From the NCBI GenBank assembly GCA_900547975.1, contig URIX01000004.1, forward strand, positions 2,719 to 66,718: a DNA stretch of 64,000 bases, in the 5' to 3' direction. This DNA is from an uncultured Eubacteriales bacterium (GTDB lineage: Bacteria > Bacillota > Clostridia > Christensenellales > CAG-917). The position numbers and the translations under genes are program-made. This document shows, one piece after another, positions 1-64,000 of this stretch; the first letter of the stretch is position 1, and each line of letters begins with the position of its first letter. A model generated the notes under the pieces. That model did not search any database. It worked only from the letters and a program-made list of their open reading frames with translations, and was not told the DNA's origin.

Positions 1-778
1 CGAGGAACAAAACGACGTTTTGTTTTCTATTGATATACGACGAAATCGTAAGCGCAATCGGTCCCGACAATCCTCTGTTTGTAAACAACATTTCGCCAAA
101 TTGGCTCGCAATCTCTTTGCCGTTTTCGTCGTTTGCGCACAGATTGACGTTTTTAAGGGATATTCCCTGCAAAGCCGACACGTTTTGCTTGACTATTATA
201 GGCGCAAGAGCCTGTCGCGGCTCAACAATTTTAAGTCCGAAAGATTTTGCAAACGCGTATCCGTCGCCCGTCGACCCGGTCGAAGGATAACTCATTCCGC
301 CCGTTGCCACGACGACTTTGTCGCACTTTATATTTTCCCACGCCGTTACGACGCAAAATCCGTCGTCGGTTTTCTTTATTTGCTTGACTTCCGTGCCGAG
401 TTTTACGTCTACGCCGAGATTTTCAATCTCGATTTGCAACGCTTTTATGACGTCGCTCGACTTTTGCGAAAACGGAAAGACTCTGTTTCCCCTTTCCACG
501 ACGAGTTTCAAGCCCAAATCCTCGAAAAACGACATCGTGTTTTGAGGCGTGAATCCGTACAGCGACGAGCGCAAAAATTTCTCGCCTCTGACGACGTTTT
601 GAAACAAATCCGCAAGTTCGCAATCGTTGGTGAGATTGCATCTCCCCTTGCCCGTTATGTAGAGTTTTTTGCCGAATTTCTCGTTTTTTTCGACAAGGAT
701 AACATCACCCCCCTCTCTTGCGAGAAAAACGGAAGCCGTCATACCTGCCGCACCTGCGCCGATTACGCAAACTCTCAT
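1..778 (-). CDS. HI0933/BaiN-like NAD(P)/FAD-dependent flavoprotein. The N-terminal ~259 codons are present and the C-terminus runs off the window start.
   Basis: Absent from the ORF track because there is no stop in the window. Hand translation from ATG 778-776 gives MRVCVIGAGAAGMTASVFLAREGGDVILVEKNEKFGKKLYITGKGRCNLTN...VVATGGMSYPSTGSTGDGY. It has a GxGxxG fold plus the TGKGRCN motif. The start overlaps the surE stop (ATGA). Confidence 0.8.
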   Translation of the reverse strand, partial: MRVCVIGAGAAGMTASVFLAREGGDVILVEKNEKFGKKLYITGKGRCNLTNDCELADLFQNVVRGEKFLRSSLYGFTPQNTMSFFEDLGLKLVVERGNRVFPFSQKSSDVIKALQIEIENLGVDVKLGTEVKQIKKTDDGFCVVTAWENIKCDKVVVATGGMSYPSTGSTGDGYAFAKSFGLKIVEPRQALAPIIVKQNVSALQGISLKNVNLCANDENGKEIASQFGEMLFTNRGLSGPIALTISSYINRKQNVVLFL

Positions 779-2799: not shown

Positions 2800-3867
2800 T
2801 TAAACGAATTCCACGACGAGTTTTTCGCTTCCGTCCTTTTTGAGAGGATATTTGACGTCTTGCCAGTTCGGTGTGACGGTTTGATTGACTTTGACTTTAA
2901 CAACGTTGTTTCCGCTTGTCAAAAGCGCGTTGTCAAGCGGTATCATTTCGTAGTTATCAAAGCCGAAATTCAACATTCTAACCGTGTCGTTCCACATATC
3001 GCCGTGATTCAACACAACGGTTATAAGTTGCATATCCCCTCTTTTTGCGCCGCCCGCGAGACATCTTCCGCTCTTCTTTGTGAAGCCGGTTTTCACGCCG
3101 TTTGCGCCCTCAAAAAGTTTCAAGAGTTTGTTTTTGTTCGCAATATATCTCGCCTCGCCGCTCACTTCGATTTTTCTCTGTTTAGTGCCGGCGATACGCA
3201 CGAAATCGTGATTTTCGTATGCCGTCGCACAAATAAGTGCCAAATCATACGCAGTGGTATAGTGGTTATCGTCGTGAAGTCCGTGCGGATTTACAAAATG
3301 AGAATTGCGTGCGCCGAGCATTTTCGCTTTTCCGTTCATAAGAGAAGCAAACTCGTCGATACCGCCCGCAACTTCAGTTGCAAGAGTAACCGCGGCGTCG
3401 TTTCCGCTTCTGAGCATAAGACCGAAAAGCAAATCTTCAACGGTTATAGTATCGCCCGCTTTCAGATATATGGACGAACCTTCTACGCCTTCTGCGATTT
3501 CGGGCACGGTTACGATTTTGTCGAGCGGCAAACGTTCGAGTGTAATCAACGCCGTCAACACTTTCGTCGTACTTGCAGGGTAGCACACCTCGTCTTTTCC
3601 GTCGGCGTACAGAACGCGCCTTGACGACGCCTCGATACACACCGCGCCGCTCGCGCCTCTTTTCACCGTTTGTAAGATTTTGTCGTTGATTGCATTTTTC
3701 GTGTTCTCATCGAGATTTTTGCTAATATAATTCTCGTTTTTGTCGTTTTTTAGAATACTTTTAATAGGATAAACGACGTTACCTATCGAAAACGAAGAAA
3801 TTATTGCAATCGTCAAACACACTATCGCAATCGCCATAACGACCGCTTTTTTTGAAAAATCGTCCAT
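2800..3867 (-). CDS. Serine-type D-Ala-D-Ala carboxypeptidase (peptidase S11, DacB/DacF-like)
   Basis: ASTTKVLTA (SxxK), SGND and KTGFT motifs, with an N-terminal membrane/signal segment. Start moved to the internal ATG at 3867, preceded by AAGAGGGAAG. The track's 392-aa ORF adds an arginine-rich false extension that overlaps ytfJ. Confidence 0.88.
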   Translation of the reverse strand: MDDFSKKAVVMAIAIVCLTIAIISSFSIGNVVYPIKSILKNDKNENYISKNLDENTKNAINDKILQTVKRGASGAVCIEASSRRVLYADGKDEVCYPASTTKVLTALITLERLPLDKIVTVPEIAEGVEGSSIYLKAGDTITVEDLLFGLMLRSGNDAAVTLATEVAGGIDEFASLMNGKAKMLGARNSHFVNPHGLHDDNHYTTAYDLALICATAYENHDFVRIAGTKQRKIEVSGEARYIANKNKLLKLFEGANGVKTGFTKKSGRCLAGGAKRGDMQLITVVLNHGDMWNDTVRMLNFGFDNYEMIPLDNALLTSGNNVVKVKVNQTVTPNWQDVKYPLKKDGSEKLVVEFV

Positions 3868-3881
3868 ATTCTTCCCTCTTT

Positions 3882-4217
3882 TCAATCCTTTTTCATAACG
3901 TTGGCAACGCTTTTGAGAAGTTCGAGCCACTTGTTTTCTTCGCCGTCTACCCTCACGAATTTTTTTTGCGCGCCGCAAACGAGAAAACCTATCGGGGTTA
4001 CGCTCACCCCACCGCCGCTTACGCCGACGGGCGATTTCACTTTCTTTTCGTTCTCGTACTCAGCGCCGCCCGCGACGAAACCCACGCTGATTTTACTCAC
4101 GGGCAAAACGAGCGTGCCGTCTCCGTTTACGATTGGCTTTCCGACAATCTCGTTAAATTCTGCCGACTTTTTCAAACTTTCTATCGTTTCTCGCAATATT
4201 TCTTCAAAACTTTGCAT
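3882..4217 (-). CDS. ytfJ: Sporulation protein YtfJ (GerW family)
   Basis: MQSFEEILRETIESLKK...IVGKPIVNGDGTLVLPVSKISVGFVAGG...GGGVSVTPIGFLV is the typical YtfJ pattern. SD AAGGGAAGG precedes the ATG at 4217. Confidence 0.85.
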   Translation of the reverse strand: MQSFEEILRETIESLKKSAEFNEIVGKPIVNGDGTLVLPVSKISVGFVAGGAEYENEKKVKSPVGVSGGGVSVTPIGFLVCGAQKKFVRVDGEENKWLELLKSVANVMKKD

Positions 4218-4218
4218 A

Positions 4219-4701
4219 TTACCTTCCCTTGCCGATTGCAATCGCTTTTATAACTTGAACGGCGTTTATCCTTATTCTTATTCCGCACTCTGCGTCGAAT
4301 CTGTCCTTTCTTTCGTCTTGAATCACCGTTTTTGCAAAAATCGGCAACATTTGCACGAGAGCGCACAGTATCGCGCCGTTTTTTGCGTCGTTTGCACCGA
4401 CGTAGGCAATCAAGCCGTTTATATCGACAATCTCGTTTTCTACCAGAAAATACACGATTTTGCCCATTTGGTTTACGCTTACGCCGTTGTCGAGATTTTT
4501 GAGCGTCTTGCCGTTTATTTGCACTTTAAGACCTTCTCGCACGCTAACCTTGATTCTCGCAATCGATATGCCGACAAATTTGAATTGCACGTTCAACGCC
4601 TCGCTTGCAAGCGAAAAATGCATCGTGCAAGACAGTTTTACGGGAAATATGAGCGCGATGAGCAACGCTTGCGCGCAAATCAGTACGACAGCAATCGCCA
4701 T
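4219..4701 (-). CDS. YtfI-like (DUF2953-like) membrane protein, upstream partner of ytfJ
   Basis: Hydrophobic N-terminus. It sits immediately upstream of, and is translationally coupled to, ytfJ, as in the B. subtilis ytfI-ytfJ pair. Family assignment rests on position and general pattern only. Confidence 0.55.
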   Translation of the reverse strand: MAIAVVLICAQALLIALIFPVKLSCTMHFSLASEALNVQFKFVGISIARIKVSVREGLKVQINGKTLKNLDNGVSVNQMGKIVYFLVENEIVDINGLIAYVGANDAKNGAILCALVQMLPIFAKTVIQDERKDRFDAECGIRIRINAVQVIKAIAIGKGR

Positions 4702-37366: not shown

Positions 37367-39085
37367 ATGGGAAGCGACCTTTTCGCATTGAGTGCGCTCG
37401 CAAAGGAACTCAAAGAAGAACTTGTCGGCGCAAGAATAGACAAAATTCAACAACCCGAAGTTGACGAGTTGCGCTTTTTCGTGCGCGCAAAAGGCAAAAA
37501 TCAATGCCTCGTTGTATCTTGCAACGCAGGCGCGCCCCGTATTCACCTCACAAAAAGCAAAAAAACGAGTCCGCAAGTCGCGCCGAACCTTTGTATGCTT
37601 CTTCGCAAATACTTGCTTTCGGCAACGATAGGCGACGTTTCCGTATACAATTACGACCGTATAATACGCGTTCGTTTCGACGCTAAAACCGAAATGCGCG
37701 ACGAGGCGACTTTCTATCTTTTCGTCGAGATTATGAACAGATACTCGAACATCGTTTTCACCGACGAAAACCTTGTCATTCTCGACGCGGTGAAACATCT
37801 TCCCCTCGATATCGAGCGCAATCACGTCGTGCTTCGCGGCGTTCCGTATTCGCCCGTACAGCAAAAGAAAATCAGTTATCTAACCGATTGTTTTTCGATT
37901 TTCGACGATTTCAACGGCGGCGATTTGCATAGATTCATACAAGACAACATATCGGGATTTTCGGGCGCGACGATTGAAGAATTGTTGCTTAGAGCAAACG
38001 TAAATTCAAACGTCGAAAAACTGTCCGTAAACGAAAAAGAACGTCTTTGCAAAACCGCTAAGGATTTTGCGAGCGTGTACTCGGACGAGCCGAAAATTCA
38101 AATCCAGCCTTGCATAATAAACGGCAAGGAAGTTTATCCTATTCTCTATCGCTCGCTTGTCGATTCGACGGAATCCAACGTCGTGCGCTTCGAGAGTATG
38201 AGCGAGGCGTACGATTCCCTTTTCACCGATTGCGACAAGGATATTCGCAACAAGGCAAGGCTCAAATCGCTTGCCACGATTGCAAAACATTTGCGCCAAA
38301 AAGTCGAGAAAAACATCGCGATAGACCTTCAAAAACTCGCCGAATGCGAGGATATGGACAAATTCAGACTTTGGGGCGAACTTATCGTAAACTACATCTA
38401 TTTGATTAAAAAAGGCGACGAAAAACTCGTCTGCACCAACTATTACGACAATTCACAAGTGGAAATCCCCCTCGATTTGCGCCTTTCGCCGTCCAAAAAC
38501 TCTACGGCATACTACGCAAAATACAACAAACTTAAACGCACAAAAGAATTTGTGAGCCAAAAACTCGAAAAGGATAAAAATTTGCTCGAATACGTCAAGT
38601 CGATAGAGGACGAAATCACAAATCTACCCTACGAAAGCGACGCGGTCGCCATCGAACAAGAATTGACTATGCTCGGCGGCACGAAAAAGAAGTCTGCAAA
38701 GAACAAAGTCCGCAAAGAAACAGCCGACCCCCCCTACGTTTATTTTGTGGACGGATTCTATATTTACAGAGGCAAAAACAATATCCAAAACGACGAATTG
38801 ACGTTCAAAATCGCCTCGTCAAACGATGTATGGTTACACCTCAAAAACGAACACGGCTCGCATACGATAATCATTACGGAAGGACGGCAAGTCCCCGACA
38901 AAGTGCTGAAAATCGCAGGTGAAATAACGGCAAGCAACAAGCAAGCCTCTTGCGAAGTGGACTACACCGAACGTCGCAACGTCAAACGCAAACCCGACGG
39001 ACACCCCGGACAAGTGATATACGTCAATTACAAAACAATGGTGTCCGAACCGAACCCGCACAAAAACCTCGAAACGCGCAAATAA
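37367..39085 (+). CDS. rqcH: Ribosome quality control factor RqcH (NFACT / FbpA family)
   Basis: NFACT-N start ...IDKIQQPEVDELRFFVR..., a coiled coil, and NFACT-R DVWLHLKNEHGSHTII. 572 aa, similar in length to B. subtilis YloA. Confidence 0.85.
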   Translation: MGSDLFALSALAKELKEELVGARIDKIQQPEVDELRFFVRAKGKNQCLVVSCNAGAPRIHLTKSKKTSPQVAPNLCMLLRKYLLSATIGDVSVYNYDRIIRVRFDAKTEMRDEATFYLFVEIMNRYSNIVFTDENLVILDAVKHLPLDIERNHVVLRGVPYSPVQQKKISYLTDCFSIFDDFNGGDLHRFIQDNISGFSGATIEELLLRANVNSNVEKLSVNEKERLCKTAKDFASVYSDEPKIQIQPCIINGKEVYPILYRSLVDSTESNVVRFESMSEAYDSLFTDCDKDIRNKARLKSLATIAKHLRQKVEKNIAIDLQKLAECEDMDKFRLWGELIVNYIYLIKKGDEKLVCTNYYDNSQVEIPLDLRLSPSKNSTAYYAKYNKLKRTKEFVSQKLEKDKNLLEYVKSIEDEITNLPYESDAVAIEQELTMLGGTKKKSAKNKVRKETADPPYVYFVDGFYIYRGKNNIQNDELTFKIASSNDVWLHLKNEHGSHTIIITEGRQVPDKVLKIAGEITASNKQASCEVDYTERRNVKRKPDGHPGQVIYVNYKTMVSEPNPHKNLETRK

Positions 39086-39096
39086 CGCGCGTTTTT
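39073..39096 (+). terminator. Possible intrinsic terminator overlapping the rqcH stop
   Basis: AACGCGC/GCGCGTT stem followed by TTTTT. Confidence 0.5.
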
Positions 39097-39203: not shown

Positions 39204-39330
39204 CTAAACTGCGCTAAATCGATGGATAACGCGAAAGAGACACCCGAACGGCAACCCTAATTTACTAATCGTAAATGAGTTGTCGGGCGGGTGTCTCTGA
39301 CAAAGTTAGGCGCGATTTAGCGCAGTTTAG
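39204..39330. repeat. Long-hairpin repeat, copy A (type 1)
   Basis: Outer stem CTAAACTGCGCTAAATCG/CGATTTAGCGCAGTTTAG is perfect over 18 bp. The core is ATGGATAACGCGAAAGAGACACCCG...CGGGTGTCTCTGACAAAGTTAGGCG. The 3' end contains the TAA stop of the UPF0210 gene. Confidence 0.9.
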
Positions 39331-43047: not shown

Positions 43048-43169
43048 AAGCGCAATATTTGGATGAAGAACAAGGAAAAGACCTTTTGCGAATCCGCCCA
43101 ACGTACAAGAACGTACGTGACGGGTGAGCAAAATGTCTTTGACGCAGTGATTCGCCAAATAGTGCGCTT
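43048..43169. repeat. Long-hairpin repeat, copy B1 (type 2)
   Basis: Outer stem AAGCGCAATATTTGG/CCAAATAGTGCGCTT. Core ATGAAGAACAAGGAAAAGACC...GTCTTTGACGCAGTGATTCG. Apical stem ACGTAC/GTACGT. Confidence 0.85.
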
Positions 43170-43295
43170 GAGAGACTGCCAAATAGATACATAACGCGAA
43201 AGAGACACCAAAACAGCAATTCCAGTGTACATAGACGTACACGAATTGATGAGTGGGTGTCTCTGACAAAGTTAGGTGCTATTTGGCAGTCTCTC
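43170..43295. repeat. Long-hairpin repeat, copy B2 (type 1)
   Basis: Outer stem GAGAGACTGCCAAATAG/CTATTTGGCAGTCTCTC is perfect over 17 bp. Core ATACATAACGCGAAAGAGACACC...GGTGTCTCTGACAAAGTTAGGTG. Apical stem GTGTAC/GTACAC. It overlaps the aminopeptidase stop by 2 nt. Confidence 0.9.
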
Positions 43296-44520
43296 AAAAT
43301 GCCCAGTTGCCGTTGCGGAAAATGAGTATATCCTCCCCATCTCTCGTATGCGCCGTCACGTTAAGGTCTTGCGAGCCGATCATAAAGTCTACGTGTATGA
43401 TTGAATCGTTGATACCTTTTTGACGACATTCTTCGAGGGTGTATTTGTCGTAATCTTTGATACAATTCTCGAAACCGCGACCAAGTGCGAGGTGACAGCA
43501 GGCGTTCTCGTCGAACAAGGTGTTGAGGAAGGTTATTTCGGAATTGCGAATAGGCGAATCGTAAGGAACGAGAGCACATTCACCGAGATAAGCGGCGTTT
43601 TCGTCCATAGAAATCATTTGTTTGAGAAGTTCCTCGCCTTTTTCGGCGTGGACTTCGACCGCTTTGCCGTTTTCAAAGCGCACGGAAAAATTCTCGATGA
43701 GTTCGCCGCGATAAGATAGCGGGCGAGTTGCATAGACGACGCCTTCCGCTTTGCCCTTCATAGGCGATGTGAAAACTTCCTCGCTCGGAATGTTGGGATT
43801 GAACTCTACACCGCCGAGCGTAAACTCGCTTCCGCCGAGAAAGAGTGCGTCGGGAATGAGCCATACGGTAAAATTAGTGCCGTTAGATGACGTATAATGC
43901 AATGATTCGATGCCGAGCGAATTGAGATAATCGTATCTTGCTTTGAGGTCGGCGTTATGCTCGTTCCAAGCCTGAACGGGGTCGTTGCCGTCCGCTCTTG
44001 ACGTGTAAAGAATGGCGTTCCAAAGTTTTTCGACAGCTTTGCCGACTCTCTCGTTCGGGAACACCTTTTTCGCCCACGCTTCACCGGGGACTGCGGCGAT
44101 ACACCATTGATATTTGTTGTCCATTTGGTCGTGTAGGGGTTTTATGATAGGATAAATCGCTCTTTGCGCCTTTGCGACTTTGGATTGGTCCACGCCTTTA
44201 AGTCCGTCGGGGTCTTCCGATTCGATATATATAACCGCGGGAAGCGCGTCAACCTGATGTTTGAGTTTTTCGACTTGCCACTCGTCCATCATGGAAAGAG
44301 TTTTGAGCGAACGATAGCGATAGTTGACTTTCGTGAGCGGTTGATAATCCCACTCGACCGTAACTTTCTTTGCACCCTTTCGATAACATTCCTCAGCAAC
44401 CATTTTTACAAATTCGGGTTGGTCGAGTCCTGCACGGATGATGACTTCTTGATTTTTCTGCACGTTTACGCCCTTTTGAGCGATAAGACGAGCATATTTT
44501 TGCATAGTTGTTTTTTTCAT
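43294..44520 (-). CDS. Aminopeptidase, peptidase family M29 (AmpS/PepS-like)
   Basis: MQKYARLIAQKGVNVQKNQEVII...; 408 aa with the family-typical N-terminus and a HVDFMIG motif. Confidence 0.88.
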   Translation of the reverse strand: MKKTTMQKYARLIAQKGVNVQKNQEVIIRAGLDQPEFVKMVAEECYRKGAKKVTVEWDYQPLTKVNYRYRSLKTLSMMDEWQVEKLKHQVDALPAVIYIESEDPDGLKGVDQSKVAKAQRAIYPIIKPLHDQMDNKYQWCIAAVPGEAWAKKVFPNERVGKAVEKLWNAILYTSRADGNDPVQAWNEHNADLKARYDYLNSLGIESLHYTSSNGTNFTVWLIPDALFLGGSEFTLGGVEFNPNIPSEEVFTSPMKGKAEGVVYATRPLSYRGELIENFSVRFENGKAVEVHAEKGEELLKQMISMDENAAYLGECALVPYDSPIRNSEITFLNTLFDENACCHLALGRGFENCIKDYDKYTLEECRQKGINDSIIHVDFMIGSQDLNVTAHTRDGEDILIFRNGNWAF

Positions 44521-44609: not shown

Positions 44610-44995
44610 GGTTTTAAGCGCGGATATTTGAGCGACAGACAAGAAAGGCACATCTTGGATCAATCCTCAAAAAACCGCACATATTCGTAAAGCGCGATAT
44701 TTAGATGAAGAACAAGAAAGAGCCGTCCGAACGGCAACCCTAATTTACTTGTAGTAAATGAGTTGACGGACGATTGGTGATGACATAGTTATTGCCGTTT
44801 TAAGCGCGATATTTGAGTGGCAGACAAGAAAGGACATCTTGAATCAATCCTCAAAAACTGCACATATTCGTAAAGCGCGATATTTAGATGAAGAACAAGA
44901 AAGAGCCGTCCGAACGGCAACCCTAATTTACTATTCGTAAATGAGTTGACGGACGGACGGCTCTGCCGAAGTTATTCGCTAAATAGCGCGCTTTA
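44610..44995. repeat. Array of four long-hairpin repeat copies (type 2), arranged as a 186-bp tandem duplication
   Basis: The unit starting GTTTTAAGCGCG recurs at 44611 and 44797. Each unit is a degenerate copy plus a full copy. The last copy (44871-44995) has outer stem TAAAGCGCGATATTTAG/CTAAATAGCGCGCTTTA and ends 3 nt from the reductase stop. Confidence 0.9.
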
Positions 44996-44998
44996 CAC

Positions 44999-47053
44999 TT
45001 ACAGTTTCATTGCAACATCCCAAGCACCCCAAATTACAGTGCGAAGGTTGCCGACTTTTGCGCTGTCGCCGACGACGTGAACGTGTTTGCTCTCTTGCGC
45101 GACGGGCGCGGGTCTGTAACCGACGGACATAATGACGGAATCTGCGGGAATCTCGAATTCTTTGCCGTCTTTGGACGCAACTTTAACGCCGTTGTCGGTG
45201 ACCGCAACGAGTTTGGTTTCGAGATGCACGGGCACTTTGTGAAGTGCAAAGTATTCTCTCAAATAGGACGAGTTTGCAAGGCATACGCCCTTGACTGCGA
45301 TAAGGTCGTTCTTCATCTCGACGATAGTCGGGTGTTTGCCTTGAAGTTGCAATTCGTATGCGATTTCGCAACCTGTCAAGCCACCGCCAATGATGACGAC
45401 GTTGTCGCCTACTTCTTTGTTTCCGAGCAAGAAATCGCACGCTTCGACGGTCTTTTCGACGCCGGGGACGTTGAAACGTCTTGCCACTGCGCCCGTTGCC
45501 ACGACGACTTCGTCTGCGTCGAGTTTGTTTACGTCGTCAACTTTGACGCCGTACTTCACTTCAATGCCCAAATCTTTGATTTGCTTTTTGTACCACTCGA
45601 TAAGTTCTTTATCTTTCTCTTTGAAAGACGGTGCTGCCGCCGCTACGAAAATGCCGCCGAGATCGTTGGATTTCTCGTAAATGGTGACTTTATGACCACG
45701 CAACGTTGCGACTCTTGCAACTTCCATACCGCCGATACCACCGCCGACGACGGCGATCTTCTTGGATTTGGTTGCGGGAACGATCTTGTATTTCTTGGAT
45801 TGCATCGTGTGCGGATTGAGTGCGCAACGAGCCATTCCTGCGGTATCCGACAAATCCTGATCGTTTGCAACGCCGTTGTAGTGCGCCATATTGAAGCAAG
45901 CGTTATGGCAGCAAATGCAAGGCATAATGTCGTCTTCTCTGCCTTGAATGAGTTTGGTGACCCATTCGGGATCGGTGAGGAATTGACGGGCGACGCCCAT
46001 ACCGTCGATTTTGCCTTCCGCAATAGCCTTTGCGCCGACTTCGGGGGTCATACGACCTGCGCAAACGACAGGAATATCGACTGCTTTTTTGAGTTCTTCA
46101 CAATCTGCGAGGTTGCAGTTTTGCGGCATATATACCGGCGGATGCGCCCAGTACCACGCGTCGTACGTACCGTTGTCCGAGTTGAGCATATCGTAACCTG
46201 CGTCTTGAAGCATTTTGGCTGCGATTTTGCTTTCTTCCATATCGCGACCGACTTCGACGTAATCTTCACCTGGAAGCGCGCCTTGACGGAAGCCTTTGGT
46301 CTTGGATACGACGGAATATCTCAACGAAACGGGATAATCTTCGCCGCATACTCTCTTGATTTCCTTGACGATTTCGATGGGGAAACGGTATCTGTTTTCG
46401 ATTGAACCGCCGTACTCGTCGGTACGTTGGTTGGTGTATTTCATCGTGAATTGGTCGAGCAAATATCCTTCGTGGACCGCGTGGATTTCAACGCCGTCAA
46501 CACCTGCGTCTTTGCACATTTTTGCGGTTTTGCCGAACGCTTTGATAAACTCGTGAATCTCGTCGATAGTCATTGCTCTGGACGGCACTTTGTCACTCCA
46601 ACGGTTGGGATTGGGACTCGCGCTCATCGTGAGTTGATCGATATTGATAAACGGCTTTGCGATTGCACCCAAAACTTTGTTTGTGGCAATCATTTCCATA
46701 AGTCCGGTGATTGCAAAAGAACGTCCGAAACCTGCGGTGAGTTGCACAAACATCTTCGCGCCCGTCTTGTGGATTTCTTCCATAAAGGGTTTGAGGTGTT
46801 TGAAAGAACTCTTGCTTTTGTAAAGCCAGTTTCCGCCGATAACGTTTCTGATGGGTGCGATACCCGGCAAAATAAGACCGACGTTGTTCTTTGCCCTATC
46901 GAGCAAGAAGTTTGCGGCTTCTTCGTCGAAGTGATGCGGTTCCATCCAGCCGAAGATTGAAGTTCCGCCCATAGAAGTCAACACGATGCGGTTTTTTATC
47001 TCGCATTTGCCTATCTTCCAAGGGGTAAACAAACTTTGATATTTGGGATCCAT
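44999..47053 (-). CDS. Old-yellow-enzyme-type NADH:flavin oxidoreductase fused to an FAD/NAD(P) domain (2-enoate / 2,4-dienoyl-CoA reductase family)
   Basis: OYE TIM-barrel N-half, CICCHNAC iron-sulfur motif, then VVGGGIGGMEVA and IIGGGLTGCEIA Rossmann motifs. 684 aa. Confidence 0.85.
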   Translation of the reverse strand: MDPKYQSLFTPWKIGKCEIKNRIVLTSMGGTSIFGWMEPHHFDEEAANFLLDRAKNNVGLILPGIAPIRNVIGGNWLYKSKSSFKHLKPFMEEIHKTGAKMFVQLTAGFGRSFAITGLMEMIATNKVLGAIAKPFINIDQLTMSASPNPNRWSDKVPSRAMTIDEIHEFIKAFGKTAKMCKDAGVDGVEIHAVHEGYLLDQFTMKYTNQRTDEYGGSIENRYRFPIEIVKEIKRVCGEDYPVSLRYSVVSKTKGFRQGALPGEDYVEVGRDMEESKIAAKMLQDAGYDMLNSDNGTYDAWYWAHPPVYMPQNCNLADCEELKKAVDIPVVCAGRMTPEVGAKAIAEGKIDGMGVARQFLTDPEWVTKLIQGREDDIMPCICCHNACFNMAHYNGVANDQDLSDTAGMARCALNPHTMQSKKYKIVPATKSKKIAVVGGGIGGMEVARVATLRGHKVTIYEKSNDLGGIFVAAAAPSFKEKDKELIEWYKKQIKDLGIEVKYGVKVDDVNKLDADEVVVATGAVARRFNVPGVEKTVEACDFLLGNKEVGDNVVIIGGGLTGCEIAYELQLQGKHPTIVEMKNDLIAVKGVCLANSSYLREYFALHKVPVHLETKLVAVTDNGVKVASKDGKEFEIPADSVIMSVGYRPAPVAQESKHVHVVGDSAKVGNLRTVIWGAWDVAMKL

Positions 47054-47264: not shown

Positions 47265-47340
47265 GCCCTCATGGTCAAGCGGTTCAAGACGTCGCCCTCT
47301 CACGGCGGAAACTAGGGTTCGATTCCCTATGGGGGTACCA
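47265..47340 (+). tRNA. tRNA-Glu (anticodon CTC), CCA encoded
   Basis: Hand-folded cloverleaf: acceptor GCCCTCA/TGGGGGT (G1-U72 and U5-G68 wobbles), D arm GTC-AAGCGGTTCAA-GAC, anticodon arm TCGCC-CTCTCAC-GGCGG, T arm TAGGG-TTCGATT-CCCTA. Closely resembles B. subtilis tRNA-Glu. Confidence 0.88.
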
Positions 47341-50762: not shown

Positions 50763-50845
50763 AATATGTTTTGTCTATAATTAAGATTGAGATTAAGATT
50801 TGTTCGCTCACCCATAAAATGAAATATTTGGATGAAGAACTTGGT

Positions 50846-50970
50846 CACAATCGTTCTTTGAGATGAAGAACAAGGAAGACGCTTCTGCACGGCAATTCCA
50901 ATTTACTTGGCGTAAATGAGTTGTCGTGCAGTGGCGTCTGACGCAGTTATTCGCTCAAAGAACGATTGTG
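50846..50970. repeat. Long-hairpin repeat, copy D (type 2)
   Basis: Outer stem CACAATCGTTCTTTGAG/CTCAAAGAACGATTGTG is perfect over 17 bp. Its 3' arm is the last 13 coding nt plus the stop of the HMA gene. Core ATGAAGAACAAGGAAGACGC...GCGTCTGACGCAGTTATTCG. Confidence 0.9.
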
Positions 50971-56525: not shown

Positions 56526-56555
56526 GCGCTCACCGAACGGTGAGCGCTTTTTTTT
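56526..56555 (+). terminator. Intrinsic terminator after the giant gene
   Basis: GCGCTCACCG/CGGTGAGCGC stem followed by TTTTTTTT. Confidence 0.8.
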
Positions 56556-56626: not shown

Positions 56627-56755
56627 GATTCGATGCGCTAAATCGATGCATAACGCGAAAGAGGCACTCGCTCGGCAACCCTAATTTACTAATCGTAAAT
56701 GAGTTGTCGAGCGAGTGCCTCTGACAAAGTCAGGCGCGATTTAGCACATCGAATC
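56627..56755. repeat. Long-hairpin repeat, copy E (type 1)
   Basis: Outer stem GATTCGATGCGCTAAATCG/CGATTTAGCACATCGAATC is 19 bp with one mismatch (C opposing A on the plus strand). Core ATGCATAACGCGAAAGAGGCACTCG...CGAGTGCCTCTGACAAAGTCAGGCG. The 3' arm encodes the last 4 codons and the stop of the HIT gene. Confidence 0.9.
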
Positions 56756-57082
56756 ACTAAGTTTTCGTCCGCCAAGTATATGAATATGCAAATGTCCGAC
56801 CGACTGGCAACCGTCCTCGCCCTTGTTGGATACGAGACGGAAACCGTTTTGAAGTCCCAACTCGTCGGTGAGCGTAGAGAGTTTTTTGAGGCATTTTGCG
56901 AGGGTTTGTGATTGAGAGTCCGTCATCTCGATTATATTTGCGTAATGCTCTTTGGGGATAAGCAAAAGATGCACGGGGGCTTGCGGATTCAAGTCCTTTA
57001 TGATAATCATATCGTCGTCTTCGTAGACTTTCGTTGACGGAATATCGCCTTTTACGATTTTGCAAAAAATGCAGTTGTCCAT
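56741..57082 (-). CDS. hit: Histidine triad (HIT) family nucleotide hydrolase
   Basis: CIFCKIVKGDIPS...VGHLHIHILGG. Confidence 0.9.
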   Translation of the reverse strand: MDNCIFCKIVKGDIPSTKVYEDDDMIIIKDLNPQAPVHLLLIPKEHYANIIEMTDSQSQTLAKCLKKLSTLTDELGLQNGFRLVSNKGEDGCQSVGHLHIHILGGRKLSDSMC

Positions 57083-57100
57083 ATCGATTTCTTCCTTTTA

Positions 57101-58390
57101 TTATTTTACGGTGTCGTCTGCAACGCCGTCGAGATAGATGTGAGTGGGCGTGATAAGACGGATTTCGTTATGCGCGCCGTTTTTCGAGTATACTTTGACA
57201 TAGTTCGGGGAATGTCCGCACCAAGCGCCGTGCGTTTGCGTTTCAAACAGCACGTTTGCAGGCATACCAAGTTGCTTGTTGAGGTAGTTGCGCACAAGTT
57301 CGCGCTTGACTGTGCTCATACGTTTTTGACGGTCGAGCACCACTTCGGGTGGCAGCGTAGGCATACGCCCCGCAACCGTTCCCCTTCTCGACGAATACGG
57401 GAAAACGTGAATATCGGCAAATCCGACTTTTTTTGCAAAAGCAACGCAGTTTTCAAATTCTTCTTCTCTTTCGCACGGAAAACCGACGATGATGTCAGTC
57501 GTAATCGCCGCGTCGGGATAGTATTCTCTGATAAGTTGCACCGCCGCATAGTATTCGTCGCAGGTATAGTGGCGATTCATTGCTTTGAGCACTCTGTCGT
57601 CGCCGCTTTGCAACGACAAATGGAAATGCGGACAGAATCTCTTTATGCCCTTCGTCGCGTCCAAAAACTCTTTTGACACCACGCCGACTTCGAGCGAACC
57701 GAGTCGCACGGCAAAATCGTACTTCGAGAGCATTTTCATAAGTTCGGTAAGCGACGAGCCGTTATCCTTGCCGTATGCGGAAAGGTTTATGCCTGTTACG
57801 ACCACCTCTTTTGCGACGTTTTGCACCTCGTCGAGTTCTCTTTCGATACTCTCGATGGCGCGCGAGCGGCTTCTGCCTCTGACGTAAGGAATCAAGCAGT
57901 AACTGCAAAAGTTGTTGCAACCGTCCTGAACCTTGATAAAATGCCTTGTGCGAAGATTCACGATTCCGTCGTTATCCTCGAAAACCGAACTTATGTCGAA
58001 CTTATCGGGAACGATTTTGTCGAATTGTGCTTCTTCACCCTTAAATTCGGTGACGATTTTGCGAGCGAAATCGAGTTTCCCGTCGCTGCCCGATATGTAT
58101 TGAACATTGTTTTTTGCAAACTGAGAAAAGTTGTTTTGAGAAGCGCAACCGCACACGAAAATCTTTGCGCCTGGATTGACTTTGAGTATTCTTGTCACCG
58201 ATTGACGAGATTTTTTTTCTGCTTCGGCGGTTACTGCACAAGAATTTATGACGTAAACGTCTGCATATTCAAGTCCTTCGGTAATTTCGAAGCCTGCGTG
58301 CTCGAAAATCGCAAGCATTGCGTCCGTGTCGTACTGATTGACCTTGCAACCCAGCGTAAATACGGATATTTTGGGAAGTTTGTCATTCAT
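57101..58390 (-). CDS. mtaB: tRNA t6A37 methylthiotransferase MtaB (MiaB-like radical SAM)
   Basis: TLGCKVNQYDT (UPF0004 domain) and CNNFCSYCLIPYVRG (CxxxCxxC). Lies after rsmE as in the B. subtilis yqeV position. Start at ATG 58390 overlaps the rsmE end; the track ORF is over-extended. Confidence 0.88.
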   Translation of the reverse strand: MNDKLPKISVFTLGCKVNQYDTDAMLAIFEHAGFEITEGLEYADVYVINSCAVTAEAEKKSRQSVTRILKVNPGAKIFVCGCASQNNFSQFAKNNVQYISGSDGKLDFARKIVTEFKGEEAQFDKIVPDKFDISSVFEDNDGIVNLRTRHFIKVQDGCNNFCSYCLIPYVRGRSRSRAIESIERELDEVQNVAKEVVVTGINLSAYGKDNGSSLTELMKMLSKYDFAVRLGSLEVGVVSKEFLDATKGIKRFCPHFHLSLQSGDDRVLKAMNRHYTCDEYYAAVQLIREYYPDAAITTDIIVGFPCEREEEFENCVAFAKKVGFADIHVFPYSSRRGTVAGRMPTLPPEVVLDRQKRMSTVKRELVRNYLNKQLGMPANVLFETQTHGAWCGHSPNYVKVYSKNGAHNEIRLITPTHIYLDGVADDTVK

Positions 58391-59108
58391 AATCAAGTTC
58401 CCCCAGAGTGTCCAAAAGTAAAGCGGAAGCCACGATAGAGGCGGTTTCCGCACGCAAAATACGTCTGCCGAGCGTCACGATTTGCGCGCCCGATTCTTTT
58501 GCGAATTGTGCTTCTTCGGGGGTAAAGCCGCCCTCTGCGCCCACAATCAAAGCAATCTTTTCCCCGCTCAAATCGCAATCTTTTATGCGGTTTTTCTTCT
58601 CGCCCTCGTATGCAAACAGCACTTTATCAAAGTCGCTAAGCGACTTTACGACATCTTGAAAATCGCAAAGTTCTCCCACTTTGGTGAGATATGCCGAACC
58701 GCATTGTTTTGCGGCTTCGAGCGCGATTTTGTCCGCCCTGTCCTTTGCGAATTTGGTTTCCGCCGTATTGCTCGACAAGAACGGACGAACCTCGTCTATT
58801 CCAAGTTCGACCGCCTTTTGAATTGCAAAATCGAGTTTATTGTTCTTCAAAAGTCCTGCAAACAGCGTGACGTGCACCCTCTTTTTGTCCTGCACTTTCT
58901 CATCTTCCACCGACAAAATCGCTTTGTCGCGGTCGATTTGCCTTATCGTGCAGTATCTTTCTATGCCGTCGTTTGCGCAGACAATCGCTTTGTAACCCGT
59001 TTTGTAGCGAAGAACTTTCGTCATATGCAAAAACTCGTCGCCCGAAACGACGATTTCACCGTTTGCGCAAACGTCTTGCGGATTGACAAAAAATCTTCTG
59101 ATTTCCAT
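58383..59108 (-). CDS. rsmE: 16S rRNA (uracil1498-N3)-methyltransferase
   Basis: MEIRRFFV..., PUA-like N-domain, C-terminal IVGAEGGFTPEE...LGRRILRAETA. Confidence 0.9.
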   Translation of the reverse strand: MEIRRFFVNPQDVCANGEIVVSGDEFLHMTKVLRYKTGYKAIVCANDGIERYCTIRQIDRDKAILSVEDEKVQDKKRVHVTLFAGLLKNNKLDFAIQKAVELGIDEVRPFLSSNTAETKFAKDRADKIALEAAKQCGSAYLTKVGELCDFQDVVKSLSDFDKVLFAYEGEKKNRIKDCDLSGEKIALIVGAEGGFTPEEAQFAKESGAQIVTLGRRILRAETASIVASALLLDTLGELDYE

Positions 59109-59120
59109 ATTCTAATCGGG

Positions 59121-60029
59121 TTAATTTTGTTTTCTTATGAGTTTGAGCGCGCGCCAGTCGTCCATTGCAATACGCTCGACGATTTCGTAGCCCGCTTCTT
59201 CATAACATTGTATCACTTCGTCGAGTCTTGTGTCAATTATACCCGACAACACGATAGTTCCGTTTTGGCGCAAATGCTTGCCTATGCTCTTTGAAAAGCG
59301 CATAAGTATGTCGGCGGTGATGTTTGCGAATATGAAGTCCGCTTGTTGGTCGCCTTCGAGCAAATCGGCTTTTTCTATGGTTGCGTCCACTTTGTTGAGT
59401 TCGGCGTTGCGCTTTGCAAATTCCACCGCTTGTTCGTCGATGTCGCACATATACACGCTTTTTGCGCCGCAAATCTTTGCCGCAATGCCCAAAATGCCGC
59501 TTCCGCACCCCACGTCGATGACGTCTTTGCCCTCGACGTCCATAAGTTCGAGGCACATTCTCGTCGTTGCGTGCGAACCCGTGCCGAACGCCATTCCGGG
59601 GTCGAGGCGCATAATCTTTTCGCCCTCGCTCGCCTTATATTCTATCCAAGTGGGAACTATGGTTATATTCTTCGTTTTTATGGGAGTATAGTACTTTTTC
59701 CACTCGTTTTCGTAGTCGGCGGCATCGATTTCGCCAAGCAGTATTTCGCCGAATTGCACGCCGTTTTTCTTCATTTCCTCGAGATTCGCTTCGAGCGCGG
59801 CAAGAAAATCCGCGTCGGTGGGCTCGTACATTGTGGAAACCTTGACCACTTCGCTTTGCTGCAAAACGCTTTCGTCGACGTAGTCCCAGATAACGTCGCT
59901 TTTTACGAGGTCGAGGAAGTCTTGTTTGTCCAAAATAGAAACGCCGCCCGCACCTGCGTCAAACATTGCTGACGAGATGAGGTCGGCGTCGTTATGGTTT
60001 GTAAAAACCGTGATCGTTTTGTATTTCAT
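59121..60029 (-). CDS. prmA: Ribosomal protein L11 methyltransferase
   Basis: LDPGMAFGTGSHATT...DVGCGSGILGIAA. Lies after dnaJ. Confidence 0.9.
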   Translation of the reverse strand: MKYKTITVFTNHNDADLISSAMFDAGAGGVSILDKQDFLDLVKSDVIWDYVDESVLQQSEVVKVSTMYEPTDADFLAALEANLEEMKKNGVQFGEILLGEIDAADYENEWKKYYTPIKTKNITIVPTWIEYKASEGEKIMRLDPGMAFGTGSHATTRMCLELMDVEGKDVIDVGCGSGILGIAAKICGAKSVYMCDIDEQAVEFAKRNAELNKVDATIEKADLLEGDQQADFIFANITADILMRFSKSIGKHLRQNGTIVLSGIIDTRLDEVIQCYEEAGYEIVERIAMDDWRALKLIRKQN

Positions 60030-60082
60030 TCGTTATACTCTCGCATTAAGCGGTTTAGATTGCCGCTTTTGTGTGGTTTATC

Positions 60083-61249
60083 TTATTTTGCCTTTTCGTC
60101 GTACGCTTTTTTGAGCGGATATTGTTTCTTCTGGTCGGAAATCTGGTCGAAGCGTTTGAGGAACTCTTTTTGTTCCTTGCTCACGCTCTTGGGAACTTCA
60201 ACGACGACCTTGACGAACATATCGCCCTTGCCCGTGCCTTTGAGTTTCTTTATGCCGTAATTCTTGATTGTAAACACCGTTCCGCTTTGCGTTCCTTCGG
60301 GGATTTTGACCTCTTTATTGCCGTAAAGCGTAGGCACTTCGATAGTCGTGCCGAGCGTTGCGTCCACGATTGAAATCGGCACTTCGAGCAACACGTCGAA
60401 TCCGTTTCTCGAAAAGAGTTTGTGAGGCGCGACTCTGACTTCGACGTACAAGCCGCCCTTTTCGCCGCCGTTCGAGCCTGCGTGACCTTCGTTGTCGTAT
60501 CTGACTCTTTGACCCGAATCGATACCGGCAGGAATATTCACCTTGACTTCGCTCACCTTTTCGAAGCGACCTACGCCGCCGCAAGAGGTGCACTTGTCGG
60601 TGATAATCTTGCCCGTGCCGTGACAGGTGGGGCAAACGCCTTGCGTGCTGACTTGACCGAACGGCGTGCGTTGAGTCATAGTCACTCTGCCGCTACCCTT
60701 ACATTGCGAGCAGACCTTGAACGCCGTACCGTCTTTTGCGCCCGTACCTTTGCAGTCGGGGCAATTCTCAACTCTCTTGACGTTGACGGTCTTTTGAGTG
60801 CCGAACGCCGCTTCCTCGAACGTAAGATTGACGCCGACGAGAATATCTTGTCCTCTTTGAGGCGCGTTTGCGCGTTGCGCTCTCGACGAGCCACCGCCGA
60901 ATCCCGAAAAGATTGACGAAAAGATGTCGTCCATATCGAATCCGAATCCGCCTGCCCCCGTACCGCCGCTGCCGAATCCGCTAAAACCGCCGAATCCCGC
61001 GCCTGCCTGCGGTCCGTTTTCGTCGCCGTAGGTGTCGTATGCCGCGCGCTTTTGCGGGTCGGAAAGCACTTCGTAGGCGTGGTTTATATCCTTAAACTTC
61101 GCCTCTGCATCCTTCTTTTCCTGCTCGCTCGCCGAAACGTACATATCGGGGTGATATTTCTTTGCGAGTTTACGATAGGCAAGTTTCAATTCGTCTGCCG
61201 TAGCCGTCTTTTCGACGCCGAGTATTTCGTAATAATTTTTTGCTGCCAT
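60083..61249 (-). CDS. dnaJ: Chaperone DnaJ
   Basis: J domain YYEILGV...KYHPD, G/F region and four CxxCxGxG zinc motifs. Confidence 0.95.
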
Positions 61250-61444
61250 AATCTATTCTTCAACCCTATCGGGTTGCCTTTATTCGTATTTGGGTGCTTT
61301 GGGCACGTTATCTCGATAACTCTTTATAATATCGAGTTTCCTTTTATACGTCTCGGCGCAACGGTTGCCCTGATTCTTCAGTCTGCAAAAGTTCTTGATA
61401 CCGGTTGCCCGTTGCGCCTCGATTCGTTATTGTTTTGACCTTTA

Positions 61445-63286
61445 TCAGTCAACCGTTCCGTCTACGCCGCCGTCCGGATTTGCGCCGCCTTGGAAGTCTT
61501 CGGGGTTAATTCCCGCTTGCTTTGCCGCTTCTGCCGCCGCTTCGGGGTTTTGTTGATAGAACTTCGTGAAGATGGGGTCGGTGACTTTCGTCAATTTCTC
61601 GACAACCGCTTTCACGTCGTCTTCGCTCTCTGCTTTTGCAAGTTCTTCGGTTGCGGTCTTCGTCGCTTCGGTGACTTGCGTCTTGTCTGCTTCTTCGAGT
61701 TTCTCGCCGTTTTCGCTTACGAATTTATCGACAGCGAAGATAAGTTGTTCTGCGTTGTTCTTTGCGTCCACGACCGCTCTGCGCTTCTTGTCTTCCTCTG
61801 CGTACTTCTCTGCGTCCTTGACAGCGGCGTCGATGTCCGCTTCGGTGAGGTTAGAAGACGCGGTGATGGTAATGGATTGAGATTTGCCGGTAGCCTTATC
61901 GCAAGCCTTGACGGATACGATACCGTTTGCGTCGATGTCGAAGGTGACTTCGATTTGCGGGATTCCGCGCGGTGCGGGTGCAATACCGACGAGTTCGAAT
62001 CTGCCGAGCGTCTTATTGTCGCGAGCAAATTGTCTTTCGCCTTGCAAAACGTGAATGTCGACTGCGGTTTGGTTGTCTGCCGCCGTGCTGAACACTTGCG
62101 ATTTGCTCGTAGGAATGGTGGTGTTTCTGTCAATAAGTTTGGTGCATACGCCGCCGAGCGTTTCGATGCCGAGCGACAACGGTGTGACGTCGAGCAAAAG
62201 CATATCTTTCACTTCGCCTGCGAGAACGCCGCCTTGAATTGCCGCGCCGAGAGCCACGCACTCGTCGGGGTTGATTCCCTTATACGGGTCTTTGCCGGTG
62301 ATGCGTTTAACGGATTCGTACACTGCGGGAACACGAGTCGAACCGCCGACCATAATGACCTTTGCGATGTCGTTGTAACTGAGTCCTGCGTCTTTGAGCG
62401 CTTGTTGCATAGGACCTTGCGTTGCCTTGACGAGGTCTTCGGTGAGCGAATCGAATTTTGCTCTGGTAAGTTCCATATCGAGGTGCATAGGCACGCCGTT
62501 TTCCATTGCGATGAACGGAAGCGAAATCTTCGCTTTGGTCACGCCGGACAAGTCGATCTTTGCCTTTTCTGCGGCTTCTTTGATACGTTGCATTGCCATC
62601 TTGTCTTTGGTGAGGTCAACGCCGTGCTCTTTCTTGAACTCGCTCGTGATCCAGTCCATAATGCGCTTGTCGAAGTCGTCGCCGCCCAAACGGTTGTTGC
62701 CTGCTGTTGCAAGAACTTCGAATACGCCGTCGCCGAGTTCGAGGATAGAAACGTCGAACGTGCCGCCGCCGAGGTCGAAGATGAGGACTTTCTGATTCTT
62801 GTTCTCGTCCTTATCGATGCCGTAAGCGAGTGCCGCCGCCGTAGGCTCGTTGATGATACGTTTCACTTCCAAGCCCGCAATCTTACCTGCGTCTTTGGTT
62901 GCTTGACGTTGAGAGTCCGTGAAGTATGCGGGAACAGTGATAACCGCTTCCGTAACCTTTTCGCCGAGATACTTCTCTGCATCGTTTTTGAGTTTGGTCA
63001 AAATCATTGCCGAGATTTCTTGCGGCGTATATTCTTTGTTTTCGATTTTAACTTTATAATCGGAACCCATCTCTCTCTTGATGGAACTTACCGTATGTTC
63101 GGGGTTTGCGACCGCCTGACGTTTAGCGATTTCGCCGACGAGTCTTTCTCCGTCCTTTGTGAACGCCACGACGGACGGGGTCGTTCTCATACCTTCGGCG
63201 TTGGGGATAACCACCGCTTCACCGCCTTCCATAACTGCTACGCACGAGTTTGTCGTACCAAGGTCAATACCGATAATCTTTCCCAT
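61445..63286 (-). CDS. dnaK: Chaperone DnaK (Hsp70)
   Basis: [24 protein letters not shown] and [10 protein letters not shown]. Confidence 0.97.
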
Positions 63287-63413
63287 ATTATTTCTCCTTT
63301 TCCCGCTTTGACGGGAAGAAAACTTATTTTCTTTATATTTTTATGTTTTCGCATTGCTGCGGAAATATCTTTTTATTGTTTACTGTTTATTGTTTTGCTT
63401 CTATACTCTTTGC

Positions 63414-64000
63414 TTAGTCTTCCCAATATCCGACTTTTACGCTTGCCGGTCTAAGAAGTTTCGTTCCGAGCATATATCCTTTTGCAAGCACTTCGACCAC
63501 TTTGCCTTGTCTCTGCTCGTCCTTGACTCTTTCAACCGCGCTCATAAACTTTGCGTCGAAGTCTTTGTCTATTGCGTCGACTTCGGTAAGTCCGAATCCG
63601 CCGAGCGCGCCGAGAATCTGACTTTCCATCATATTGAATCCCGTAAGAGCCGCTTCGTCTTTAACGTACTTTCTTGCGAGGTCGCAGTTGTCAAGCACGG
63701 AAAGCATCTTTTCAATCACTATGGATTGTCCGAGTTGCTTCATATCTTCGGCAATGGAATTGTTGCGCTTGCGATAGTTGTCGAAATCCGCTTGCAGTCT
63801 TTGAGTCAAACCTTTGCAGGTTTCTGCCTCTGCGATTGCCTGTCCGAGTTTTTCTTCGAGTGCTGCGATGTATTCCTCGTCGCTAAGCCCCTCGCGGTCT
63901 ATCTCGAAAGACCTTTTCTCGTCCTCTTTGACTTCCGCTTCTACTTGCTCGTCGTTTTGGCTTTCGACTTTATTTTCGTTTTTGTTTTCGTATTTATCTT
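63414..64000 (-). CDS. grpE: Nucleotide exchange factor GrpE; the N-terminus lies beyond the window end
   Basis: RLQADFDNYRKR and the C-terminal beta domain. The frame stays open upstream of the track's TTG start to position 64000 (...EEYIAALEEKLGQAIAEAETCKGLTQRLQ). Confidence 0.9.
   Translation of the reverse strand, partial: DKYENKNENKVESQNDEQVEAEVKEDEKRSFEIDREGLSDEEYIAALEEKLGQAIAEAETCKGLTQRLQADFDNYRKRNNSIAEDMKQLGQSIVIEKMLSVLDNCDLARKYVKDEAALTGFNMMESQILGALGGFGLTEVDAIDKDFDAKFMSAVERVKDEQRQGKVVEVLAKGYMLGTKLLRPASVKVGYWED

Follow-up and report, generated by a model that had tools for sequence, protein, structure and literature searches.

Why does a hairpin that recurs along a bacterial chromosome keep its pairing while the sequence of its stems changes? 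The question is raised by a 127-nt hairpin in an uncultured Eubacteriales bacterium, located in a stretch of 64,000 nucleotides that was analyzed as a whole and is called the window below. A preliminary description of this DNA had claimed that compensatory changes between copies show that the hairpin itself is maintained, either because selection acts on a folded RNA or single-stranded DNA hairpin or because a copying mechanism regenerates both arms from one template. The window is bacterial chromosome with housekeeping genes (NFACT, DUF711, PAP2, M29 peptidase, FMN/FAD oxidoreductase, P-type ATPase, MiaB-like enzyme, RsmE, PrmA). A phage origin was rejected, as there is no megablast match among phage records and the neighbors are housekeeping genes.

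Organization of the hairpins in the window

The window contains seven copies of the hairpin, all on the + strand (Table 1), and the repeat has no long open reading frame of its own among those of the window. In copy A, a short helix with non-canonical pairs and then a 5x6-nt internal loop lie between the outer and middle stems. The outer stems are perfect over 17-19 bp, with a sequence that differs between the window copies. Copies B1 and B2 overlap by 2 nt and mismatches are more numerous in B1. A remnant of the 5' arm of an older copy is found immediately upstream of copy D (about 50817-50845).

Table 1. Hairpin copies, their parts and the long variant. Positions refer to the window unless a sampled locus (L-number) is named.
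Feature	Position	Strand	Size, sequence and context
Copy A, full hairpin	39204-39330	+	127 nt; TAA of minus-strand DUF711 gene (39327-39329) within 3' arm
Copy A, outer stem	39204-39221 / 39313-39330		perfect, 18 bp
Copy A, middle stem	39236-39246 / 39288-39298		11 bp; AGAGACACCCG / CGGGTGTCTCT
Copy A, inner stem	39250-39255 / 39279-39284		GGCAAC / GTTGTC
Copy A, 4x2 loop			CCTA / GA; between inner and apical stems
Copy A, apical stem	39260-39265 / 39271-39276		ATTTAC / GTAAAT; 5-nt loop 39266-39270
Copy B1, full	43048-43169	+	gene-distal in two-copy array; apical stem ACGTAC/GTACGT
Copy B2, full	43168-43297	+	gene-proximal; TGA of M29 peptidase gene (43294-43296) within 3' arm
Copy B2, outer stem	43168-43186 / 43279-43297		perfect, 19 bp; apical stem GTGTAC/GTACAC
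Copy C1	about 44686-44796	+	gene-distal; 3' side degenerate; within 183-bp tandem duplication
Copy C2, full	44870-44996	+	gene-proximal; ends 2 nt short of TAA (44999-45001) of minus-strand FMN/FAD oxidoreductase gene
Copy C2, middle stem			AGAGCCGTCCG / CGGACGGCTCT
Copy D, full	50846-50970	+	TGA of 72-aa minus-strand ORF (50955-50957) within 3' arm; stem GACGC / GCGTC
Copy D, outer stem	50846-50862 / 50954-50970		atypical yet perfect, 17 bp
Copy E, full	56628-56754	+	last codons and TAA (56741-56743) of 113-aa minus-strand ORF within 3' outer arm
Copy E, middle stem	56660-56670 / 56712-56722		AGAGGCACTCG / CGAGTGCCTCT
Long variant	L092, about 360-540	-	
Long variant	L063, about 3730-3910	-	
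Long variant	L007, L022, L058, L068, L073, L082, L087, L098, L111		

All seven copies adjoin or follow minus-strand genes. They are restricted to 39-57 kb, with none at 1-39000 or 57000-64000 despite many + strand gene ends. The 183-bp tandem duplication (44610-44976) spans C1 and C2, together with partial 5'-arm-like pieces. Canonical bidirectional terminators are located at 39071-39095 and 56526-56547. They coincide with the stop codons of two + strand genes, NFACT and a gene for a 1522-aa phosphoesterase, respectively, or lie no more than 10 nt away from them. In both convergent gene pairs, the + gene ends in an ordinary terminator and the - gene in the repeat.

Family sample, distribution and variants

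A degenerate pattern on the 5' loop region matched at least 115 DNA stretches. All of the matches listed, except those in L106 and L107 (Bacteroidales MAGs), come from about 25 species-level uncultured Clostridia MAGs, and the matched DNA includes a 1.65-Mb ‘Christensenella sp.’ chromosome. A covariance model combined with an nhmmer search gave 231 non-overlapping matches, 129 of which are distinct full-length copies. The modelled unit, i.e., the hairpin of ~127 nt with a few flanking bases, measures 133-136 nt in all 129 copies and is almost free of indels. On the modelled strand, its consensus reads (T)AAAAnnGCGATATTTAGATGAAGAACAAGAAAGAGCC..GGCAACCCTAATTTAC-loop-GTAAATGAGTTGACGG..GGCTCTGACGnAGTTATTCGCTAAATAGCGCGnTTTT(A). 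Genes in the sampled loci were called by a simple ORF heuristic. We should note that the loci were chosen for carrying the repeat, so that neither element densities nor empty sites can be estimated from this sample.

Among the matches listed, the family does not extend beyond one clade of uncultured gut Clostridia with small genomes, whose deposited names are CAG:475, CAG:238 and, for other MAGs, ‘Christensenella sp.’ or ‘Clostridiales’. The same repeat family is carried by several H07xxx ‘cleanbin’ MAGs (L019, L020, L012 and others), deposited as Butyrivibrio crossotus, Phascolarctobacterium succinatutens or Anaeroplasmataceae, and two loci from such MAGs (L012 and L060) share 89-94% identity with the window. 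The deposited names of these MAGs appear to be wrong. A literature search returned no description of this repeat family.

A search of Rfam 15 at the gathering score gave no match at the elements; its only matches are an ordinary tRNA gene in the window (47265-47337) and a cobalamin riboswitch in L075 (993-1200), both unrelated to the repeat. A permissive Rfam search of the elements yielded sub-threshold matches only, mostly to microRNA-type hairpins.

In a long variant of the element (Table 1), the 3' internal loop carries an additional branch hairpin of ~55 nt (GTAAGGAACGAAGTGACGGAATAGCGATTG..CAATCGCGTCC), and in one copy (L073, 4731-4843) a related hairpin is located in the 5' loop. At site A, the window has the short form and its closest relatives the long variant. 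In addition, a second, larger conserved repeat of about 350-450 nt occurs in L004, L007, L032, L041 (about 3570-4230), L075, L100 and L103. In these seven loci it contains the 55-nt hairpin module, while its upstream parts are found without the module in L039 and L015. Often it follows just past the far end of a hairpin element, and in L004 a GAPDH-like gene lies immediately downstream of it. No match to this larger repeat was found in Rfam, and the window lacks it.

Folding and covariation

The full window copies are much more stable than shuffled sequences, with RNA fold z-scores between -7.6 and -13 on the + strand and between -4.9 and -11.7 on the - strand, and the window copies alone already show double changes in 33 of 49 predicted pairs. 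The middle-stem sequences given in the preliminary description for copies A, E, C2 and D are all present. For copy E the sequences are right and the coordinates need correction, since 56656-56666 / 56709-56719 lie 3-4 nt off the true positions (Table 1). The swaps of the apical stem as pairs were confirmed, with ATTTAC/GTAAAT common to copies A, C, D and E and other perfect pairings in B1 and B2, and the interval originally delimited (39236-39298) represents only the inner part of the 127-nt hairpin.

Covariation over the family was evaluated with the 129 copies in a MAFFT alignment (A3) and an RNAalifold structure, using 500 shuffles and partners slid by 1-3 columns as controls. Standard pairs make up 95.3% of the cells, compared to 73.7 ± 0.3% in the shuffles. 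Changes on both sides are found in 40 of 46 pairs (shuffle mean 32.0) and in 1185 cells (341 in shuffles). The observed covariation score of 0.546 compares with 0.156 for shuffled alignments and is reached by none of the 500 shuffles, and slid partners score 0.098 at most. These counts of pair cells are not counts of independent events, for which the spanning-tree and orthologue analyses below correct partly. Three or four Watson-Crick types are present at many pairs, and the internal-loop columns are almost invariant while the stems vary. Each hairpin is built of four covarying helices with nearly invariant asymmetric internal loops between them. It had been proposed that stem substitutions that are not preferentially compensatory in a larger alignment, or arms differing as often as loops, would speak against maintenance of the hairpin. 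Neither pattern is seen, as stem changes are overwhelmingly compensatory and loops conserved over the 129 copies, and the observation that the hairpin is maintained therefore stands.

Position and orientation at gene ends

Position and orientation at gene ends are the most marked regularity of the repeat. For 123 copies a downstream gene was called, and in 107 of these it converges on the element. The stop codon of the converging gene lies between -14 and +7 nt from the element end in 71 of the 107, mostly 3-5 nt inside the element, and most of the remaining converging genes are one element-length off, behind another copy. The opposite end of the element adjoins a gene in one copy only, and the orientation to the gene is fixed. 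Abutted genes use TAA in 65 of 71 cases, compared to a background of 53%, and the abutted stop is usually the T-AA that opens the element's own A-tract.

Read on the gene strand, the order is stop codon, A-tract (T-AAAA), GC-rich outer stem, long interrupted hairpin and T-tract (TTTT-A). The stem base is GCGC-rich, and T is present at 55-95% in the four positions past the stem. In outline, this layout is that of a bidirectional intrinsic terminator whose stem is greatly lengthened. In L039 (about 3400-3480), a 3'-arm remnant and a canonical A-tract/T-tract terminator occupy the site where three other species carry the element; judged from this arrangement, element and canonical terminator are possibly functionally equivalent.

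The modelled strand is usually C-rich, in 95 of 112 copies by overall GC skew (loci of at least 6 kb). For the replication component it is C-rich in 36 of 47 mixed-orientation loci, a bias inseparable from the co-orientation of genes with replication.

Turnover and arrays

Eleven loci syntenic with the window (73-96% identity) carry elements at the same gene ends. The 78 orthologous pairs are largely bimodal: they show either no double changes, or between 9 and 20 doubles together with loop differences, even at 90-97% flank identity. Highly different orthologous copies represent replacement by another family variant, and most differences at the same site arise in this way and not by compensation in place. 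Retained orthologous copies are more conserved (96.6% identity) than the coding flank (91.7%) and the far flank (84.4%). At strain level, contigs that encode an identical M29 peptidase show no differences in the intergenic region. Non-orthologous copies can be 95-98% identical, also within one genome, with the similarity bounded by the A- and T-tracts.

Arrays are frequent (58) and polarized. In 39 of the 58, the member next to the gene has the higher score (p = 0.012), 3' truncation affects 22 distal members versus three proximal ones, and the orientation is uniform within arrays. In L109, a different variant lies precisely at the conserved stop codon; beyond it, the older copy persists as its 5' half. 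Taken together, the bimodal turnover, the near-identical dispersed copies, the polarized arrays and the nesting in L109 indicate repeated arrival at the stop-codon end, with older copies decaying. One contig (L120) lacks one of the 183-bp duplicate units, which is either a real polymorphism or an assembly collapse; several contigs break inside the repeat.

We consider it probable, with considerable reservation, that the element is a mobile or recombining palindromic repeat of BOX/SPRITE/MITE-like type that also acts as a gene-end hairpin or terminator, its pairing being kept by selection on the lineages that persist. The family would spread and turn over like a MITE or like BOX and SPRITE repeats, via transposition or ectopic recombination. 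New copies would land at the stop-codon end, and older ones would be pushed away and decay. Once in place, the element may serve as a gene-end hairpin, i.e., a bidirectional terminator and/or a shield of the mRNA 3' end. The invariant loops would be a putative binding site for some factor, whose sequence-specific recognition maintains them. The compensatory pattern would result if only lineages with intact pairing persist and propagate, while individual copies first gain uncompensated single changes.

Several observations stand against this explanation. Neither a transposase nor any other multi-copy protein turned up among the 585 ORFs of the sampled loci (0.87 Mb), and the orthologous loci contain no clean empty site or unambiguous target-site duplication, only the decayed site in L039 and an N-filled one in L007. 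The ends are the least conserved part of the element (outermost T/A positions at 41-55%), unlike typical terminal inverted repeats. T-A is found at both ends, which is compatible with a TA duplication; since TA is self-complementary and continues the stem, such a duplication is inseparable from the palindrome.

A more specific reading, which we put forward tentatively and regard as doubtful rather than likely, is that of a mobile ‘terminator cassette’ targeted to the stop-codon junction, possibly to the gene-proximal foot of terminator-like hairpins including its own older copies. The TAA would be rebuilt from the cassette's own A-tract, repeated insertion would give rise to the arrays polarized toward the gene end, and the loops would be read, probably on folded DNA, by a putative recombinase. 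On this reading, the abutment to stop codons would reflect true targeting.

Constraints on the folded molecule

Where selection acts on the RNA of one strand, G·U is normally in large excess there. One T·G is invariant in 127 of the 129 copies; with this position set aside, the mismatches comprise 97 G·T, 99 A·C and 183 others. G·T and A·C are thus equally frequent, and neither strand shows the signature of RNA selection. This also weighs against the preferred reading of a mobile gene-end hairpin, since a terminator or stabilizer working purely at the RNA level would predict a G·U-type excess on the mRNA strand (99 vs 97). In a minimum spanning tree of the copies, transversion-type doubles (304) are as common as transition-type doubles (238), which gives no indication of a route via wobble intermediates. 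The modelled strand has a folding energy of -58.6 kcal/mol versus -57.0 kcal/mol for the gene strand and folds better in 84 of 129 copies, and the conserved purine-purine mismatches and the T·G pairable only on the modelled strand are a weak hint of strand. A K-turn in the internal loop was considered and rejected, as the GA/AG arrangement does not fit when compared by eye with the consensus.

We judge it unlikely that the family is a dedicated structured RNA, i.e., a cis-regulatory 3'-UTR hairpin or antisense small RNA that would be inherited vertically with occasional duplication and be recognized by a specific protein at its invariant purine-rich loops on the modelled strand. Such an RNA would account for the strong covariation around invariant loops, for the optional branch hairpin at a fixed position in the 3' internal loop and for the conservation of copies in place beyond that of their flanks, and the slightly better folding of the modelled strand and its T·G pair agree with it. 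Besides the missing wobble asymmetry, it is opposed by the near-identical copies at unrelated loci, the swapping of variants at orthologous sites and the frequent truncated remnants and arrays, as well as by the lack of an Rfam match and of a conserved promoter in the flanks.

Under the second option of the preliminary description, copying of one arm from the other, matched changes would need no selection. One arm could template the other through template switching at a quasi-palindrome, fold-back priming or repair of a hairpin or cruciform. The perfect outer stems of 17-19 bp with very different sequences would be expected from such a process, as would the absent asymmetry between G·T and A·C and the similar frequency of transversion- and transition-type doubles. 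In addition, the far arm pairs with the last codons of the gene in copies E and D and in L020 (versus L043/L070), L014, L052, L034 and L110, which is poorly explained by point mutation alone; we therefore keep templated extension as an occasional, not a main, process.

As a general explanation, arm-copying seems to us quite improbable. The closest relatives (at most five differences) show 30 single uncompensated stem changes and one double, and doubles versus singles amount to 68 versus 84 and then 473 versus 254 at greater divergence. Copying would moreover erase the invariant T·G, the conserved purine-purine mismatches and the asymmetric loops, and mismatched middle stems persist in two species, namely in the site-A orthologues L092 and L063, where this stem is poorly paired. 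Finally, in a flank-extension test, complementarity beyond the element ends does not exceed the null except in a few copies, and thus generally stops at the ends. The preliminary interpretation is thus supported in part. Maintenance of the hairpin itself is strongly supported; of the two options first offered, selection on RNA lacks its usual wobble asymmetry, and arm-copying is unlikely as the routine mechanism. In our reading, selection keeps the arms paired, and neither arm is routinely copied from its partner.

Comparison with known repeats and terminators

In pneumococci, 36 genes have their stop codon within a BOX repeat, and SPRITE, which is enriched at the 3' ends of genes, resembles an oversized Rho-independent terminator and has presumably been co-opted as one (PMC3049150). 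Like BOX, RUP and SPRITE (PMC3049150), the family described here consists of small non-coding hairpin repeats of Firmicutes that are enriched downstream of genes, follow gene orientation and have modular variants. It differs from them, in a comparison by behavior only and not by sequence, in that about two thirds of the copies lie against a stop codon and invariably turn the same end to it. It also differs in its single long hairpin with 60-bp arms and invariant asymmetric loops, in its arrays that are best kept gene-proximally and in the lack of a related IS in the sampled loci.

Correia elements of Neisseria and ERIC/IRU elements of enterobacteria insert at TA and have orientation-dependent effects on mRNA; the former property would fit the T-A at both ends of our element. 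These MITEs have well-conserved terminal inverted repeats and clear TA duplications, whereas the termini are the least conserved part here. They share with our element a size of 100-160 bp, nearly complete self-complementarity and an intergenic location (see also PMC2229807). Regarding the features that define a MITE, the family shows a small size without coding capacity and occurs at many non-homologous loci with some copies nearly identical, while a parent IS or transposase with matching ends was not found in the 0.87 Mb of loci.

REP sequences and BIMEs are abundant extragenic palindromes at gene ends that have been linked to termination and mRNA stability (PMC3733652, PMC2817692). This class was rejected, as REPs are 20-40 bp long with a GTAG or CGTC tag, alternate in orientation in BIMEs and are associated with RAYT, while the present element has ~127 nt, an A-tract start, uniform orientation within arrays and no repeated protein in the sampled loci.

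With bidirectional intrinsic terminators, the element shares the A-tract, the GC-rich stem base and the T-tract as well as the placement immediately behind a stop codon. Its stem is about five times longer, conserved loops interrupt it and the whole unit is a dispersed repeat. Its arms of about 60 nt are far beyond the short stem (about 5-15 bp) and small loop of ordinary intrinsic terminators, which also counts against the terminator role in the preferred reading, and a terminator scan does not report any element in one piece.

We regard it as highly improbable that the repeat is a recombination site of attC-like logic, formed by folded single-stranded DNA and read by a site-specific recombinase through structure and unpaired bases: structure and unpaired bases are conserved over variable stem sequences, GTTAGGC (fitting GTTRRRY) occurs in one subfamily, the stop codon lies in the proximal arm and arrays are best preserved at one fixed end, but the flanking genes are syntenic housekeeping genes of 400-1500 aa and not cassettes, the GTT motif is internal instead of terminal and missing from the major subfamily (GTTATTC), and no integrase or recombinase candidate is present among the Pfam domains of ten window proteins or the multi-copy proteins of the sampled loci. 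An integron attC in the strict sense was rejected by gene content and motif position, with no terminal R''/R' boxes (RYYYAAC / GTTRRRY).

The family belongs to the known class of small palindromic intergenic repeats as a so far undescribed member, and is not a REP/BIME, attC or Rfam family. It is distinguished by its strict, oriented abutment to stop codons, its arrays preserved gene-proximally and its invariant asymmetric loops.

Implications

For the annotation of uncultured gut Clostridia, the family matters since dozens of genes end in the TAA of the repeat and assemblies break or collapse at the repeats. With 129 full-length copies from about 25 species, both orthologous and paralogous, it provides a natural dataset on how long palindromes keep their pairing, and the evidence from it favors selection on the lineages that propagate, and neither wobble tolerance of the RNA type nor arm-copying. 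If the tentative reading of a targeted cassette is true, targeting of the stop codon would be a rule not described for bacterial MITEs, representing a new site choice for a small mobile element and, with it, a portable gene-end module.
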